From a virus (Duplodnaviria > Caudoviricetes): a DNA stretch of 64,000 bases. The stretch spans positions 192,001 through 256,000 of IMG/VR virus record IMGVR_UViG_3300037247_001786. The stretch is one strand, 5' to 3'. Under the pieces are notes generated by a model. It saw only the letters and a program-made list of their open reading frames with translations. It did not search any database and was not told the DNA's origin. Both the position numbers and the translations under genes were made by a program. Shown one piece after another: positions 29,387 through 55,309 of the stretch; position 1 is the first letter of the stretch; each line of letters starts with the position of its first letter.

Positions 29387-29710
29387 ATGAGACATAAAGG
29401 TTATAATAGTTTTAGTTACCCTCCAGACCTTGTTGAAGAGAAGGGGTGTGAGGTTTGCGGCTGCATTTGTGATGTTAATCGAGGAGTAGTTGGACCTACG
29501 AGTTTCGCTGGAGCGATGGCCAAATGCAAAACTCCTCATGATAGTTTTACTTGCCCTTACAGTGATGAGGAGTGGCATATCTCGGCACTGAGTATGTCTT
29601 TGGAGAGAGACGAATTTCATAGTCCATCATTAAAAAAACTTATACAGAGCGATATCGACGATATTGTATTTAATAATGTTAATCCTTTTATAGAGGCTGA
29701 GCGTTCTTGA
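29387..29710 (+). CDS. Stand-alone Cys/His module (CxxC...HD.F.CP)
   Basis: CEVCGCICDVNRGVVGPTSFAGAMAKCKTPHDSFTCPYSDEEWH. Confidence 0.65.
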   Translation: MRHKGYNSFSYPPDLVEEKGCEVCGCICDVNRGVVGPTSFAGAMAKCKTPHDSFTCPYSDEEWHISALSMSLERDEFHSPSLKKLIQSDIDDIVFNNVNPFIEAERS

Positions 29711-30444
29711 ATACATATGTTGAGTTAATTAACAAGCATAAGGGAGAGGATTGTTTTATTTTGGCGGCTGGACCAACTCTTTATGATGTTTTTTATAAAG
29801 AGTACAAAGACTATATTGATCTATTTCGAGACAAAGTTGTTATCTCTGTAAATGCTTCGATTATAGCTTGCGTTGAGCATCTTGATTGGATGGGAGACGG
29901 AGATAATAGATATTGGATATCAGATGACTCATTGACTACGAGGTGGTCGTGGTGGAAGTTAGTTGAGCAGAGTAAGTGTACTAAAATAGTAAGAAATAGT
30001 TGGTTGAAACAGAAACATTATGGGGATATCGATGGTTTCCTTCATTTCTCCGCCAGACCGACACCAGAGGACGTAATTAACAAAGATGATGTTGGTCTGT
30101 CATATTGTTCTTCTGCTCCCTCAGCGATAGACCTGGCGATTCAGATGGGTTGTAAGAATATCTATTTACTAGGTCTTGATCATGCGAAGAGAGACGGCAA
30201 AGTGTATTTTTGGGAATATTTCTCAAAAGTTAGGCATCCCAAACAATTCAAACCAGGTAAACCTCCTTGGCATGTTCAGAAGGACATGTACAAAGTCAAT
30301 GCTATGGCATATGAGGCACTAGATAAATTCGCGGAAGAAAAAGGTTCTCAAATTTATAATTGTAGCAAAATAGCACATCAGGAGAAGACCACATATTCAT
30401 TCAAATACAAGGATTTTGCCGATATTATAGCAAGTGAGCAATAA
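29707..30444 (+). CDS. DUF115/MptE-like (Maf/Cst-type) putative nonulosonate transferase
   Basis: CFILAAGPTL, VISVN, IYLLGLDH, IYNCS. Confidence 0.65.
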   Translation: MNTYVELINKHKGEDCFILAAGPTLYDVFYKEYKDYIDLFRDKVVISVNASIIACVEHLDWMGDGDNRYWISDDSLTTRWSWWKLVEQSKCTKIVRNSWLKQKHYGDIDGFLHFSARPTPEDVINKDDVGLSYCSSAPSAIDLAIQMGCKNIYLLGLDHAKRDGKVYFWEYFSKVRHPKQFKPGKPPWHVQKDMYKVNAMAYEALDKFAEEKGSQIYNCSKIAHQEKTTYSFKYKDFADIIASEQ

Positions 30445-30456
30445 AGGAGAGTTCTT

Positions 30457-31125
30457 ATGTCGAAAAAATATAAACCTCTAGAAAAGTGGAACGGGATACT
30501 TGAGAAAAAAGAGCCTATTTTTATTTTAGGTAATGGACCTAGCTTAACAGATAATGATTTATCTTTACTTGATACTTATTTAACAATTGGCATAAATAGA
30601 GTTTTTCAAGCTTATGATCCAACTATTCTTTTTTGGCAAGATAGAAGTGTCTGGGCTACAAGCTCAAAAGATATGCAGAAAACCAAGTCTATAAAGGTAA
30701 CTAGGAAGGGAATGGTTGGTCCTAATCTATTTCCTAATTATTTATTTTTTGTTTTAAAAGGCAAACGTAATTCTCCTTATCCTGGACAGTGTGATACCGC
30801 TAAATTAATAGGGCAAGATATAACACATGGAGTTACCACTCAATTTGCAGAAGCTTTATGCCCATCTCATATTGTCTTTTTAGGAATAGATTGTCAGTTT
30901 AGAGATGGTAAAACTGATTTTTATGGTAATAATAAATTTCATAGAAAGGATATGTTAGATAGATGTGCCCAGATTTCTATGAAAATAAAACGGGGATGTC
31001 AGGTTCCTATTTTTAACTGTGGTTTGAGCGATTGCTGGAGAACAAGAAAATTAGAAGAAGTTATTGCAGAAATAAATCCTCCAAAACATGACAGAGAATA
31101 TTATGAAAAACTTTTTGGAAGATAA
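30457..31125 (+). CDS. DUF115/MptE-like (Maf/Cst-type) putative nonulosonate transferase
   Basis: IFILGNGPSL, TIGINR, IVFLGIDC, IFNCG. Confidence 0.7.
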   Translation: MSKKYKPLEKWNGILEKKEPIFILGNGPSLTDNDLSLLDTYLTIGINRVFQAYDPTILFWQDRSVWATSSKDMQKTKSIKVTRKGMVGPNLFPNYLFFVLKGKRNSPYPGQCDTAKLIGQDITHGVTTQFAEALCPSHIVFLGIDCQFRDGKTDFYGNNKFHRKDMLDRCAQISMKIKRGCQVPIFNCGLSDCWRTRKLEEVIAEINPPKHDREYYEKLFGR

Positions 31126-52694: not shown

Positions 52695-53374
52695 AAGAGA
52701 ACGGAGCGGATATAGATTCCGTTAATTATTTTAATGATAAGGTGGAGGTTAGAGGATATCAGAATTTTGATATTACGAAAGATGATATATCTGTACTAGA
52801 TAATAAAAGAAAATGGACTGTTACCTATGATAAATTTAATATTGTTAATTCTGCTATGAGTAGATTGGGAAATGATGTTAAGTCGTATATAGATATCGGT
52901 TCTAATCTCGGATTATATGTTTTTTTGGCAAGGATAAAATACGGATTAGTCTCTGTTGGTGTCGATTATAATTATGAATATATAGATGTCTGTGAAAAGA
53001 TTAATGATAAGTTCGGTTTCGGATGCGATTTTAATGTTAATTCTTTTAAGGAATTAGACATTAGGTATGATTGTGTTTCGTTGTTGGGGACTATCCATCA
53101 TTTGTACCATAGAACAGAAAGATTTGGCGAGCTAGGCCCTATTGTTAAGAAGATCGCCGATATTACTAAAAGATATTTAATTATTGAGTTCCCAACTATT
53201 AAAGATTCTAAGGCAAAAAAATGGGTAAATATGAAACATAGAGTAAAAAAAGAAGAATATAATTTAAATAATTTTATGAAGTATTGTGAGGAATATTTTA
53301 TAAATATAGAAAAACTTGGGGGAGTTATTCCTCAACGACCAATATTTTTAATGGAGAGAAAACCTAATGGGTAA
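52685..53374 (+). CDS. Class I SAM-dependent methyltransferase
   Basis: YIDIGSNLG, VGVD, YDCVSLLGTIHH, LIIE. Confidence 0.8.
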   Translation: MHIEENGADIDSVNYFNDKVEVRGYQNFDITKDDISVLDNKRKWTVTYDKFNIVNSAMSRLGNDVKSYIDIGSNLGLYVFLARIKYGLVSVGVDYNYEYIDVCEKINDKFGFGCDFNVNSFKELDIRYDCVSLLGTIHHLYHRTERFGELGPIVKKIADITKRYLIIEFPTIKDSKAKKWVNMKHRVKKEEYNLNNFMKYCEEYFINIEKLGGVIPQRPIFLMERKPNG

Positions 53375-54338
53375 AACAGCATTGATAACAGGGATAAGTG
53401 GAATGGATGGAAGTCATTTATCAGATCTGCTATTAAGTAAAGGTTACGAGGTGTTCGGATTAGAAAGGAGGCTTTCAAAAAAAAACAGAACAAATCTGTC
53501 TCATGTAGAAAAGGATATAAATTTTTTATGTGGAGATATGACCGACCAGAATTCGCTTATAAGAGCCTTAAGGGATAGCGACCCAGATGAGGTTTATAAC
53601 TTAGCTGCACAGTCATTTGTAGGAGATAGTTGGAATATCCCGATACAAACATCAGATGTTACAGGTTTAGGCGTTCTAAGGATGCTCGAAGCCATTAGAG
53701 AATATGGTAAAGATATTAAATTCTACCAAGCTAGTTCCTCTGAAATGTTTGGTCGGATGAAAGATACTATTGCTAATGAAGAAACCGTTTTTTACCCTAG
53801 AAGTCCGTATGGGGTATCCAAATTGTATGGGCATTGGATAACCAAGAATTACAGAGAATCTTATAAGATGTTTAATTGTTCTGGTATATTATTTAATCAT
53901 GAATCTGAGAGAAGGGGATTAGAATTCGTAACTAGAAAAATTACTAATGGAATTGCTTTGATAAAATGCGGAAAAGCTGATAAGATATATCTCGGCAACT
54001 TAGAGGCAAAAAGAGACTGGGGATATGCCCCTGATTATGTAGAGGCTATGTGGTTGATGCTGCAGCAAAAAAAACCAGATGATTATGTCGTGGCTACTGG
54101 AAAATCTTTCTCTATCAAATACTTTTTACGAGAAGCTTTTAGTGTGGTAGGGATAACCGATTGGGAGGATTACGTTGGCATAGATGAAAGATTTATGCGT
54201 CCAGCGGAAGTAGATTGTTTAAGAGGAGACTATAGTAAGGCTAAAGAAAAATTAGGTTGGGAACCAAAAGTTAGTTTCAAGAAAATGGTCGAAATGATGG
54301 TTAAAAACGATGTCCTAATTGTTGAAAATAGGAGATAA
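53367..54338 (+). CDS. gmd: GDP-mannose 4,6-dehydratase
   Basis: ALITGISGMDGSHL, YNLAAQSFV, YQASSSEMFG, PRSPYGVSK, NHESERRG, RDWGYA. Confidence 0.95.
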   Translation: MGKTALITGISGMDGSHLSDLLLSKGYEVFGLERRLSKKNRTNLSHVEKDINFLCGDMTDQNSLIRALRDSDPDEVYNLAAQSFVGDSWNIPIQTSDVTGLGVLRMLEAIREYGKDIKFYQASSSEMFGRMKDTIANEETVFYPRSPYGVSKLYGHWITKNYRESYKMFNCSGILFNHESERRGLEFVTRKITNGIALIKCGKADKIYLGNLEAKRDWGYAPDYVEAMWLMLQQKKPDDYVVATGKSFSIKYFLREAFSVVGITDWEDYVGIDERFMRPAEVDCLRGDYSKAKEKLGWEPKVSFKKMVEMMVKNDVLIVENRR

Positions 54339-54340
54339 TT

Positions 54341-55309
54341 GTGAAACTCTTATTTTTAAGGGGTCAGGTTCCTCAGGATAGAGATCCTCGTCAAATAATG
54401 TTTGACAATATAGAAGACTGCGACGATATGTGGACACAGTTAGCATACGAATTGTCAAAGCAAGAAATGGGAGAGGTCTGGTATTGGAACGGGAAGAGAA
54501 AAGTTAGCTATGCTGATAATTTTATTGAAAGATGGTTGCCCAATTTTAAAATAACAAAATATGATTTTAAGCCAGATGTTATTTTTACTAGAGGTGGATT
54601 TAAAAGTTATGACCCAGTTCTTAAAAGAAATCCTCAAGCATTTAAAATATATTATGGTGCTGGTAGAAGATTTTATCCTAAGAAAATGTTTAGCGATTAT
54701 AACCTTATGCTCGTTGATACTCAAAAACAATTAAACAAAGTTAAAAAATTATTTCCTAATATTAAATCTGATTTAATAGTTAAGCCAGTTGCTGAAAATA
54801 TCTTTAAGCCCTCTCAAGAGCAAAATAAAAAATATGACATTATATTAGTTGGTAATTACAATCCTAGAGTAGATAAGGGTCACGACTTCGCATTTACTAG
54901 AATACCAAAACATTATAAAGTTATCTGTGCTGGTATCGTTCCCAAAAAAATTAGAAGAAAATATCTTCATATTAAATTCACTGGATGGATACCGAGAAGG
55001 GATGTCTCCTCTTTATACGCTCAATCAAAAATAGCAGTGATATGTTGTGGAACTATAGATTCTTGTCCGAGGGTGATTCCTGAAGCTATTGCTTGCAATT
55101 GTCCGATATTAGTATTAGATAGAATAAAGTTTTCTCATGAAAAATATATTTCGGATGAGACAGGATTGCTGACTAATGAACAAAATTTTAATAAAGATTT
55201 AGAAAAAACTGTAAAAGAGTATGAAAAATTTTCTCCGAATTCTTATTATAAAAAAAAATTATCGTTGCAAGTCTCATCTAATAAAATTTTAGAATCGATA
55301 AGGAGGTAA
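54341..55309 (+). CDS. GT4-like glycosyltransferase (GTG start)
   Basis: FKPS..KKYDIILVG, DSCPRVIPEA. Confidence 0.65.
   Translation: MKLLFLRGQVPQDRDPRQIMFDNIEDCDDMWTQLAYELSKQEMGEVWYWNGKRKVSYADNFIERWLPNFKITKYDFKPDVIFTRGGFKSYDPVLKRNPQAFKIYYGAGRRFYPKKMFSDYNLMLVDTQKQLNKVKKLFPNIKSDLIVKPVAENIFKPSQEQNKKYDIILVGNYNPRVDKGHDFAFTRIPKHYKVICAGIVPKKIRRKYLHIKFTGWIPRRDVSSLYAQSKIAVICCGTIDSCPRVIPEAIACNCPILVLDRIKFSHEKYISDETGLLTNEQNFNKDLEKTVKEYEKFSPNSYYKKKLSLQVSSNKILESIRR

Follow-up and report, generated by a model that had tools for sequence, protein, structure and literature searches.

Within a 64,000-nucleotide stretch of DNA, called here the window (bases 192001–256000 of the 460,978-bp IMG/VR record IMGVR_UViG_3300037247_001786), positions 29707–55309 are occupied by a nearly gapless island of 32 open reading frames (ORFs), mostly abutting or overlapping and 30 of them on the + strand, in which glycosyltransferases (GTs) stand together with genes for the synthesis and decoration of activated sugars. 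We propose, with a probability of roughly 0.55, that this island is the main part of a lipid-carrier-independent glycosylation system that acts in the cytoplasm of the host on the phage's own proteins. The evidence comes from the gene content of the island, from the membrane components that are missing, from genomic linkage and from conservation among relatives. Positions are those of the window unless marked "genome", in which case they refer to the whole record.

Searches against Pfam, NCBIfam and PDB sequences, together with Atlas look-alikes (by features and structure), identified 13 GT-like genes in the island (Table 1), or 14 if a weak DUF1647 match is counted: two of the DUF115/MptE type, one GT29-like, one GT34/Nucleotid_trans-like, three GT2 (one strong, two weak), one GT9, three GT4 (two solid, one weak), one GT-B and one phage-specific GT-A. 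An initial annotation of this DNA had counted about 15 such genes; the dense set is real, the number slightly smaller. The sugar-nucleotide and decorating enzymes that it placed in the same block were recovered by Pfam, NCBIfam and Atlas matches, and its nonulosonate reading is upheld by a NeuB-family synthase, a PseF-like cytidine monophosphate (CMP)-transferase, the GT29-like gene and the two DUF115 genes, one of which is modelled as Maf/CstII-like. The canonical sialic, legionaminic and pseudaminic acid pathways are represented in the island by both their NeuB/LegI/PseI-type synthase and their CMP-synthetase; a NeuC/LegG-type hydrolysing 2-epimerase and the PseB/PseC or LegB/LegC set of dehydratase and aminotransferase were not found there, nor did any of the 32 island ORFs, to which the search was confined, match the DegT family (Pse/Leg-type aminotransferases). 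The short NeuB scores 167 bits with the NeuB model and 140 bits with PseI, and the CMP-transferase fusion, which recurs in phage contigs and in bacteria, 107 bits as PseF-like and 169 bits as PGDH-like, the NCBIfam scores of NeuB and the CMP-transferase all lying below the equivalog cut-offs. The best PDB matches of the 2-epimerase are non-hydrolysing UDP-N-acetylglucosamine and UDP-diNAcA 2-epimerases.

The transferases that could handle an acidic sugar stand at the head of the island. Both DUF115 proteins (222 and 245 amino acids) score below the family cut-off of Pfam PF01973. The AlphaFold2 model of the second, DUF115b (predicted local distance difference test score, pLDDT, 93), has the flagellin nonulosonate O-transferase Maf (PDB 5MU5) as its top Foldseek match (template-modelling score on the query, TMq, 0.52; probability 1.00), followed by CstII and CstI, and it resembles protein-sialylating enzymes in the catalytic core only. 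In the GT29-like gene the match to PF00777 spans profile positions 55–118 only, and ST3Gal-I (2WNB) matches residues 99–144 (E 9e-4), a stretch that we take to be sialyl motif L. The GT34-like ORF has a hydrophobic N-terminal segment (residues 23–41, Kyte–Doolittle 2.27), the sole strongly hydrophobic segment of the island, and is thus a possible case of an N-terminal anchor, the TTG start being uncertain.

The record is that of a tailed megaphage (Caudoviricetes) and not a bacterial chromosome, because it carries a portal (genome 71380–73680; phrog_16240, E 1e-49 with PHROG profiles), a head-maturation protease domain (phrog_18299, at the beginning of genome 74390–79894) and a tape measure (genome 123625–126912; phrog_794). 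The "probable phage genome" of the initial annotation is confirmed by these genes on the same contig; of the two genes that it had named as a check, capsid and terminase, neither was located, the Pfam models Phage_capsid (HK97) and Terminase_6C having no match in the whole genome. The IMG/VR virus record is 100% complete by CheckV, and the genome has 34% G+C and is 93% coding (table 11), with the majority of its genes on one strand. Among public runs, the island occurs in only one, a DNA metagenome of marine sediment that is probably the source sample (no RNA run is listed), and megablast of the island and its left flank against the INPHARED phages gave no match.

Across the 461-kb genome there is no match to Polysacc_synt (Wzx) or Wzy_C, nor, with positive controls run, to the initiating transferases Bac_transf and Glycos_transf_4. 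A hydrophobic-segment scan of all its ORFs found at most four segments in any one of them; a Wzm-like permease, for which about six would be expected, was not seen, the ATP-binding cassette (ABC) families including ABC2_membrane not having been searched by profile. The claim that Wzx/Wzy, an initiating transferase and multi-transmembrane proteins are lacking from the island has therefore stood and now extends to the whole genome, with Wzm/Wzt judged by hydrophobic segments only. Since these defining parts were tested and are absent, the island does not belong to the Wzx/Wzy, ABC-dependent or accessory-Sec systems. The further step from this absence to a cytoplasmic target was overstated: the absence holds, but use of the host's machinery remains compatible with it.

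Profile searches of the genome found nine additional GTs beyond the window, for a genome total of about 22; four lie in or beside tail-fibre genes and five in an operon near a serine-rich gene, and none is a close paralogue of any island gene in the tblastn table. The five-GT operon is followed by two small ORFs, the last of which ends 256 bp before the start of the serine-rich gene (genome 458066). In a composition scan of all genome ORFs, polyserine tracts occur in exactly two genes. The larger ORF runs off the record at both ends; joined over the 110-bp terminal repeat, it forms a single frame of 1,622 amino acids, of which 848 (52%) are serine, and reads in order as an N-domain, serine tracts of about 50 and about 250 residues, three beta-rich repeats of about 110–130 amino acids, about 600 residues of polyserine and a 130-residue C-domain. 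The small paralogue (335 amino acids, genome 56046–57053) consists of a folded N-domain, a 45-residue polyserine tract and a C-domain. The N-domains of the two are 72% identical, their C-terminal domains show no detectable similarity, and an LPXTG motif is absent from the C-terminal sequence of the 1,622-residue protein. All six serine codons are used in the serine tracts, a sign that selection acts at the protein level. With the five-GT operon directly upstream of one of them, the serine-rich proteins are candidate acceptors.

The "direct terminal repeat" of 110 bp (genome 460869–460978 and 1–110) falls inside the polyserine-coding repeat and is for this reason less likely to be a true terminal repeat than an overlap from circular assembly. 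Independent Logan contigs of the source run show the order N-domain, polyserine, mid-domain, polyserine at phage depth, but break inside the polyserine tracts, so that the junction across the record ends is neither confirmed nor refuted. One Logan piece at the repeat has about four times phage depth and one contig omits 129 bp; the length of the polyserine repeat may have been collapsed in assembly. Polyserine genes break assemblies, and counts of them in phage genomes from metagenomes are therefore probably too low.

The 166-residue N-domain (genome 458066–458563 and 56046–56546) belongs to no Pfam family, yet 6,529 representative proteins match it at E<=0.001, often with the domain in tandem and in proteins of 1,000–2,700 amino acids; the domain is widespread but unnamed. 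The model (pLDDT 96) shows a jelly roll resembling carbohydrate-binding modules and lectins, with weak structural matches to carbohydrate-binding modules, a tumour necrosis factor-like lectin, and phage tailspike and baseplate domains, and the serine-rich head domain looks in this model like a surface module. The idea that the glycan is built on virion proteins, put forward in the initial annotation, is strengthened, short of proof, by the serine-rich proteins near a five-GT operon and by the GTs among tail-fibre genes. The latter would also suit a different choice of acceptor, in which other phage proteins (capsid, decoration or tail) are the targets and the serine tracts are unglycosylated flexible spacers: GTs lie in and beside the tail module, the large structural ORFs are 15–22% serine plus threonine, and the glycosylation of mycobacteriophage capsids and tail tubes (Freeman et al. 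2023, as cited in PMC12619734) is a precedent. Yet the tightest linkage of a GT set in the genome is to the serine-rich gene, and hundreds of consecutive serines in six codons match the carriers of O-glycans (bacterial serine-rich adhesins, mucins); we think this choice, which departs from our proposal in the acceptor only, rather improbable.

Relatives came from protein databases and from a search with the serine-rich mid-domain, single-protein scans of viral contigs with the fusion, DUF115a, DUF115b and the topoisomerase having found none; they were compared by tblastn over about 20 kb of each contig. Homologues of DUF115b (70–77% identity) lie on contigs of 86–337 kb. The order Apyc1-like, cREC_REC, DUF115, DUF115, GT29, two small ORFs, deformylase is kept in two contigs (L014 and L015), one of which runs on into a GT block. 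Two others, L002 and L003, carry the core of NeuB, CMP-transferase/dehydrogenase, epimerase, oxidoreductase and short-chain dehydrogenase/reductase (SDR) at 61–78% identity (NeuB 77–78% in both; epimerase, oxidoreductase and SDR 61–67% in L002), the CMP-transferase and dehydrogenase halves being separate genes in L003. Their accessory genes differ, with sulfate activation in L002 and many FkbM methyltransferases in the other. In L002, a 32-kb contig, positions 15727–20792 hold an HMGL-like/CTP_transf_3 fusion, a haloacid dehalogenase (HAD) phosphatase, a CysN/CysC-type sulfate adenylyltransferase-APS (adenosine 5'-phosphosulfate) kinase and a PAPS_reduct-family (CysD-like) protein, and this set beside glycan genes fits the sulfotransferase-like gene of the window. 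The trio of two DUF115 genes and GT29 and the sugar-acid core are thus conserved at 57–87% identity; most of the other island GTs, the methyltransferases and the GDP-mannose dehydratase had no match in the portions compared. Mosaics of this kind are typical where surface glycans are under diversifying selection.

A homologue of the serine-rich mid-domain (47% identity) was found in the IMG/VR contigs 3300017991_005548 and 3300018080_008436 (296 and 476 kb), which appear to represent a single phage type. In the 296-kb contig this homologue is part of a protein of 4,276 amino acids, 52% serine, that adjoins a protein with the MNWYK leader of the clade; the ORF following the 4,276-residue gene (L016:11404-14487) is likewise serine-rich. 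The 476-kb contig stops inside the serine repeat, and its island holds a short NeuB, a CMP-transferase, four to five GT2 and three GT4, with no Wzx and no initiating transferase found in it. Giant serine-rich proteins and membrane-free NeuB/GT islands thus co-occur in two lineages. Both contigs are classed by IMG/VR as "provirus", a class that may be wrong, as they share MNWYK-leader proteins and giant serine-rich genes with the megaphage.

From these observations we infer acceptor, sugar identities, order of steps and location on the virion as follows. The short NeuB and the CMP-transferase/dehydrogenase fusion would yield a CMP-linked 3-deoxy-2-ulosonic (sialic-acid-like) acid, the GDP-mannose dehydratase a GDP-6-deoxyhexose precursor, and the epimerase, oxidoreductase, acetyltransferase and SDR a modified UDP-N-acetylhexosamine. 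The roughly 13 soluble GTs would then attach sugars singly and in sequence to serine or threonine of the acceptor, the conserved trio (two DUF115 and GT29-like) would add the acidic sugar, and the methyltransferases and the sulfotransferase-like enzyme would complete the glycan. The likeliest acceptors would be the 1,622-residue serine-rich protein and its 335-residue paralogue, which would stand on the particle as mucin-like fibrils or bristles; the large proteins of the tail fibres may be decorated too. More tentatively, and at somewhat less than even odds, huge phages of marine sediment may in general build mucin-like fibrils from half-serine proteins of 1,600–4,300 amino acids with a lectin-like head, densely O-glycosylated in the cytoplasm by about 22 soluble GTs and bearing strain-variable glycans with a sialic-acid-like sugar, methyl groups and sulfate.

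Several points weigh against the cytoplasmic glycosylation of phage proteins. The phage is uncultured, and the structural matches are modest, with template-modelling (TM) scores of 0.4–0.5. A polyserine tract is found in 0 of the top 150 N-domain homologues and the small paralogue's C-domain is without homologues, so that the acceptor idea rests on two phage lineages; polyserine can also serve as a plain flexible linker. The island stands outside the head and tail module and at least 200 kb from both serine-rich genes, and its flanks hold replication and defence-type genes (Apyc1-like, cREC_REC, RlaP, topoisomerase). A motif derived upstream of structural genes (A[AG]AGG[AT]T[TA], 3–9 bases, CG[AG][AT]A), a candidate late promoter, occurs 12 times on the + strand of the genome against 4.25 in shuffles, with sites that include genome 54004, 113983, 120608 and 123560, and stands 65–144 bp upstream of the tape measure, of other structural operons and of the operon of the small serine-rich paralogue; none lies in the island. 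The pattern is too loose, however, for expression timing to be read from it, and in a scan of 25–44 kb for sigma-70 promoters and terminators sites were no commoner than in shuffles.

Two further points on the same side bear on the host envelope. GTs of O-antigen synthesis and of lipid-linked pathways are soluble or peripheral, so that the absence of membrane genes from the phage is not decisive; and in bacteria, where the fusion recurs in sources such as Elusimicrobia and Flavobacteriaceae, its closest homologues (44% identity; L012 and L013) lie next to NeuB and a methyltransferase, inside two polysaccharide loci of the ABC-transporter type (ABC2_membrane, ABC_tran). Both would suit a remodelling of the host envelope, in which phage sugars would be added to undecaprenyl-linked O-antigen, capsule or S-layer intermediates that the host initiates and exports; the surface of the infected cell would be altered, for example blocking superinfection or the sticking of progeny to debris. 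The island does lie among early or metabolic-type rather than structural genes, and GT9, the Lept_O_ant GT-B and Capsule_synth-like families are classically enzymes of lipopolysaccharide (LPS) and capsule. About 22 GTs and several complete sugar pathways would, however, be a large investment without any gene for export or initiation, as a rule flippases and ligases are selective for the glycan of their own pathway, and a GT operon beside a 52%-serine protein, GTs at the tail fibres and giant serine-rich proteins recurring with such islands would be left unexplained. We regard envelope remodelling, and the change of cell surface that would follow from it, as unlikely.

DNA had been named in the initial annotation as a possible alternative target of the glycan, and GTs might indeed glycosylate hydroxymethylated pyrimidines of the phage DNA and so evade restriction, as phage GTs related to LPS and teichoic-acid enzymes put mono- to trisaccharides on 5-hydroxymethylcytosine (Pyle et al., bioRxiv 10.1101/2023.12.21.572611). 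One divergent thymidylate-synthase-family ORF (genome 279718–280656; 42 bits to Pfam, E about 8e-4 to PDB thymidylate synthases) could by its sequence be a pyrimidine hydroxymethylase or a divergent ThyA; its neighbours are a histidine kinase, an HNH-RNA ligase and a P-loop kinase, and it lies far from any GT. In profile searches of the genome there was neither a Tet_JBP dioxygenase nor a C5 DNA methylase, and the glycans known from DNA consist of one to three common sugars, unlike a product that about 13 transferases would build with acidic nine-carbon sugars and that would be methylated and sulfated. With this lone ThyA-like gene and no dioxygenase or methylase, the case for DNA is weakened to the point where we give it hardly any credence. 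A free, lipid-linked or small-molecule-linked glycoconjugate, such as a soluble decoy glycan or a glycosylated metabolite, would accommodate the several island ORFs without a family match and the 2-hydroxyacid dehydrogenase and radical S-adenosylmethionine (SAM) enzyme in or near the block. Genes for polyketide synthase, nonribosomal peptide synthetase, a lipid scaffold or an exporter were not seen in the island, however, and the radical SAM enzyme and deformylase are conserved neighbours found also without a GT block (L014); this product, too, seems very improbable.

Table 1. Genes of the glycan island (window positions) and further glycosyltransferase loci (genome positions)
Feature	Position	Strand	Evidence and relatives
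DUF115/MptE-like gene a	29707..30444	+	Pfam PF01973 E 5.9e-8; 85–87% identity in L014, L015
DUF115/MptE-like gene b, predicted short Maf/CstII-fold transferase	30457..31125	+	Pfam PF01973
GT29-like sialyltransferase-motif gene	31128..31955	+	Pfam PF00777 34.4 bits (cut-off 23); 63–66% identity in relatives
Two small conserved ORFs (111 and 133 aa)	32004..32924	+	57–67% identity, syntenic in L014, L015; no Pfam or PHROG match
Peptide deformylase	32927	+	Pfam PF01327 E 9e-36
AmmeMemoRadiSam-like radical SAM enzyme	33606 (pair 32927..34454)	+	TIGR04337 186 bits, below cut-off 220
207-aa ORF	34455..35078	-	No Pfam/PHROG match; partial homologue at L014 edge
Nucleotid_trans/GT34-like transferase	35065..35802	-	PF03407 27.6 bits, PF05637 25.4 bits, both above cut-offs
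226-aa ORF	35705..36385	+	No credible Pfam/PHROG match
Weak GT2/FKRP-like gene	36387 (first of three GTs, 36387..38924)	+	Pfam
GT9	37219	+	Pfam; 47% identity in L015
GT4	38004 (block ends 38924)	+	Pfam; 64% identity in L015
207-aa ORF	from 38926	+	Stands before SAM methyltransferase gene
SAM methyltransferase	39551 (block 38926..40165)	+	Pfam TehB, Methyltransf_25
Weak GT2-like gene	40149	+	Pfam E 0.007, below cut-off
Weak GT4-like gene	40787 (pair 40149..41716)	+	Pfam E 3.4e-5, below cut-off
GT-B fold transferase, Lept_O_ant_chp1/Glyphos_transf/Capsule_synth/polysialyltransferase-like group	41701..42813	+	Atlas features 0.97–0.98; structure TM 0.73–0.84, mostly to viral clusters; 34–35% identity in L002, L003
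Viral GT-A (GT2-like), phage-specific cluster	42813..43769	+	Atlas 0.97–0.99; TM 0.63–0.84 to GT2 families
2-epimerase, nearer non-hydrolysing WecB type	43751	+	WecB 173 bits, NeuC 47 bits
NeuD/PglB/VioB-type hexapeptide acetyltransferase	44751	+	Pfam; no match in L002
GFO/IDH/MocA oxidoreductase	45329	+	Pfam
Extended SDR, weakly LegB-like	46275 (tailoring set 43751..47243)	+	Pfam
CMP-ulosonate cytidylyltransferase fused to D-2-hydroxyacid dehydrogenase	47209..48882	+	Pfam CTP_transf_3 and 2-Hacid_dh_C
254-aa ORF, possible transferase	48872..49636	+	Weak DUF1647 match, Pfam E 0.0017, below cut-off
Short NeuB-family ulosonic-acid synthase (262 aa, without SAF domain)	49648..50436	+	Pfam NeuB E 1.8e-52
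Sulfotransferase-like gene	50424..51323	+	Atlas 0.96 to viral sulfotransferase clusters, TM 0.51–0.66; 58% identity in L003
Strong GT2	51332 (block 51332..53374)	+	Pfam E 7.5e-17
237-aa ORF	within 51332..53374	+	Between GT2 and weak methyltransferase
Weak methyltransferase	52685	+	Pfam E 0.005
GDP-mannose 4,6-dehydratase	53367..54338	+	TIGR01472 417.4 bits (cut-off 415); Pfam E 4.5e-128
GT4, final island gene	54341..55309	+	Pfam Glycos_transf_1 E 2.6e-10; 63% identity at L002 edge
GT4	genome 139148–140251		Between tail-module ORFs of 1,085 and 1,761 aa
GT2, GT4, GT2	genome ~175.0–180.1 kb		After giant ORFs bearing fn3, Laminin_G_3 and Kelch domains
Operon GT9-like, GT4, GT2, GT9-like, PLOD-GT-like and methyltransferase	genome 450675–456684

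Some genes in and around the island belong to other functions. The peptide deformylase and the radical SAM enzyme are conserved neighbours and probably not glycan genes, and a PHROG search of ten unassigned island ORFs gave no match. Just upstream of the island lie an Apyc1-like metallo-beta-lactamase of the anti-Pycsar type (26554–27357) and a cREC_REC "cyclic-phosphate processing receiver" protein (28254–28919), whose position is kept in the related megaphage contigs L014 and L015. Just downstream are an RlaP-type nucleotidyltransferase and a type IA topoisomerase (56135–59846), and further on an FtsH-like protein (AAA and M41 peptidase, 61292–63307) that has no hydrophobic segment and is thus apparently soluble.

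To our knowledge, the only phages shown to glycosylate their virions with enzymes of their own are a few mycobacteriophages that have a handful of transferases; elsewhere, complex glycans made by viruses are characteristic of the giant viruses of eukaryotes. A literature search of incomplete coverage turned up no account of polyserine proteins in phages, nor of huge phages with nonulosonate pathways; the novelty lies in the scale, the division into several loci and the serine-rich candidate carrier. If the proposal is correct, about 35 kb with about 22 GTs and their own activated-sugar pathways would mean that viruses of prokaryotes can build an elaborate glycocalyx without a membrane pathway, and the system would be a counterpart, in a virus of bacteria, to the fibrils of Mimivirus and the serine-rich adhesins of bacteria; the searchable literature yielded no description of one in any phage. 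The candidate carrier makes the idea directly testable. Coats of this kind could influence adsorption, how stable the particles are in sediment, and whether grazers or defence systems recognize them. For glyco-engineering the island offers soluble enzymes, among them short Maf/CstII-like transferases, phage-specific GT-A and GT-B enzymes and the CMP-transferase/dehydrogenase fusion.

In its way of working the proposed system would be like four known ones, namely Mimivirus fibril glycosylation, bacterial serine-rich repeat adhesins, Maf-type sialylation of flagellin and the glycosylation of mycobacteriophage virions. The bacterial ABC-dependent loci L012 and L013 resemble the island in the homologous fusion and its neighbours, but have Wzm/Wzt-type export genes, a SAF-bearing NeuB and DegT aminotransferases, none of which is in the phage island; they bring out what is missing from the phage version and also indicate where the module ordinarily functions. 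Maf (PDB 5MU5) and CstII/CstI (GT42) have a catalytic fold in common with DUF115/MptE-like proteins, and their genes travel with NeuB and a CMP-transferase; Maf, however, has 632 amino acids against the 222–245 of the phage proteins, which are of CstII size, and its extra N- and C-terminal regions are absent, only the core aligning (TM score on the target, TMt, 0.21). In the mycobacteriophages Che8, Corndog and Myrna, structural proteins of the phage are modified in the cytoplasm by GTs that it encodes itself, with glycans that act as a shield for the particle (Freeman et al. 2023, as summarised in PMC12619734). Those phages have a few GTs beside capsid genes and glycans on the C-termini of capsid and tail-tube proteins, whereas here there are about 22 GTs, sugar pathways, a predicted acidic sugar and giant polyserine proteins.

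In Gram-positive bacteria, GTs encoded at the locus glycosylate the serine-rich repeat adhesins while these are still inside the cell, ahead of their export (PMC7948813). GspB, Fap1, PsrP and SraP resemble the phage protein in carrier layout, with a short serine-rich region, a folded binding region, a very long serine-rich region and a C-terminal domain. GtfA belongs to GT4, and a GT4 also stands in the operon beside the phage serine-rich gene; the likeness to the GtfA/GtfB systems is one of way of working and not of family membership. Unlike the adhesins, the phage proteins are encoded by a virus, have no signal peptide and no LPXTG anchor, and their folded domains show no detectable homology to those of the adhesins; as to accessory Sec, there is no SecY-like multi-transmembrane protein in the phage genome, SecA2 not having been searched for.

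The fibril clusters of Mimivirus hold sugar-nucleotide genes, GTs, a methyltransferase and the fibril protein R135 and differ in gene content between clades (PMC9614988). In Mimivirus (Megavirinae) as in the megaphage, the genes are virus-encoded and cytoplasmic in action, with sugar-nucleotide pathways, about five or more GTs and a methyltransferase clustered together; in Mimivirus the carrier gene, R135, is part of the cluster, and here a GT operon lies beside a candidate carrier gene, while the GT sets vary among relatives. The present system differs in that it belongs to a tailed phage with a prokaryotic host and is spread over three to four loci, and in that a polyserine repeat protein would take the place of a GMC oxidoreductase as carrier, bearing an acidic sugar of the NeuB/CMP type and probably sulfate.

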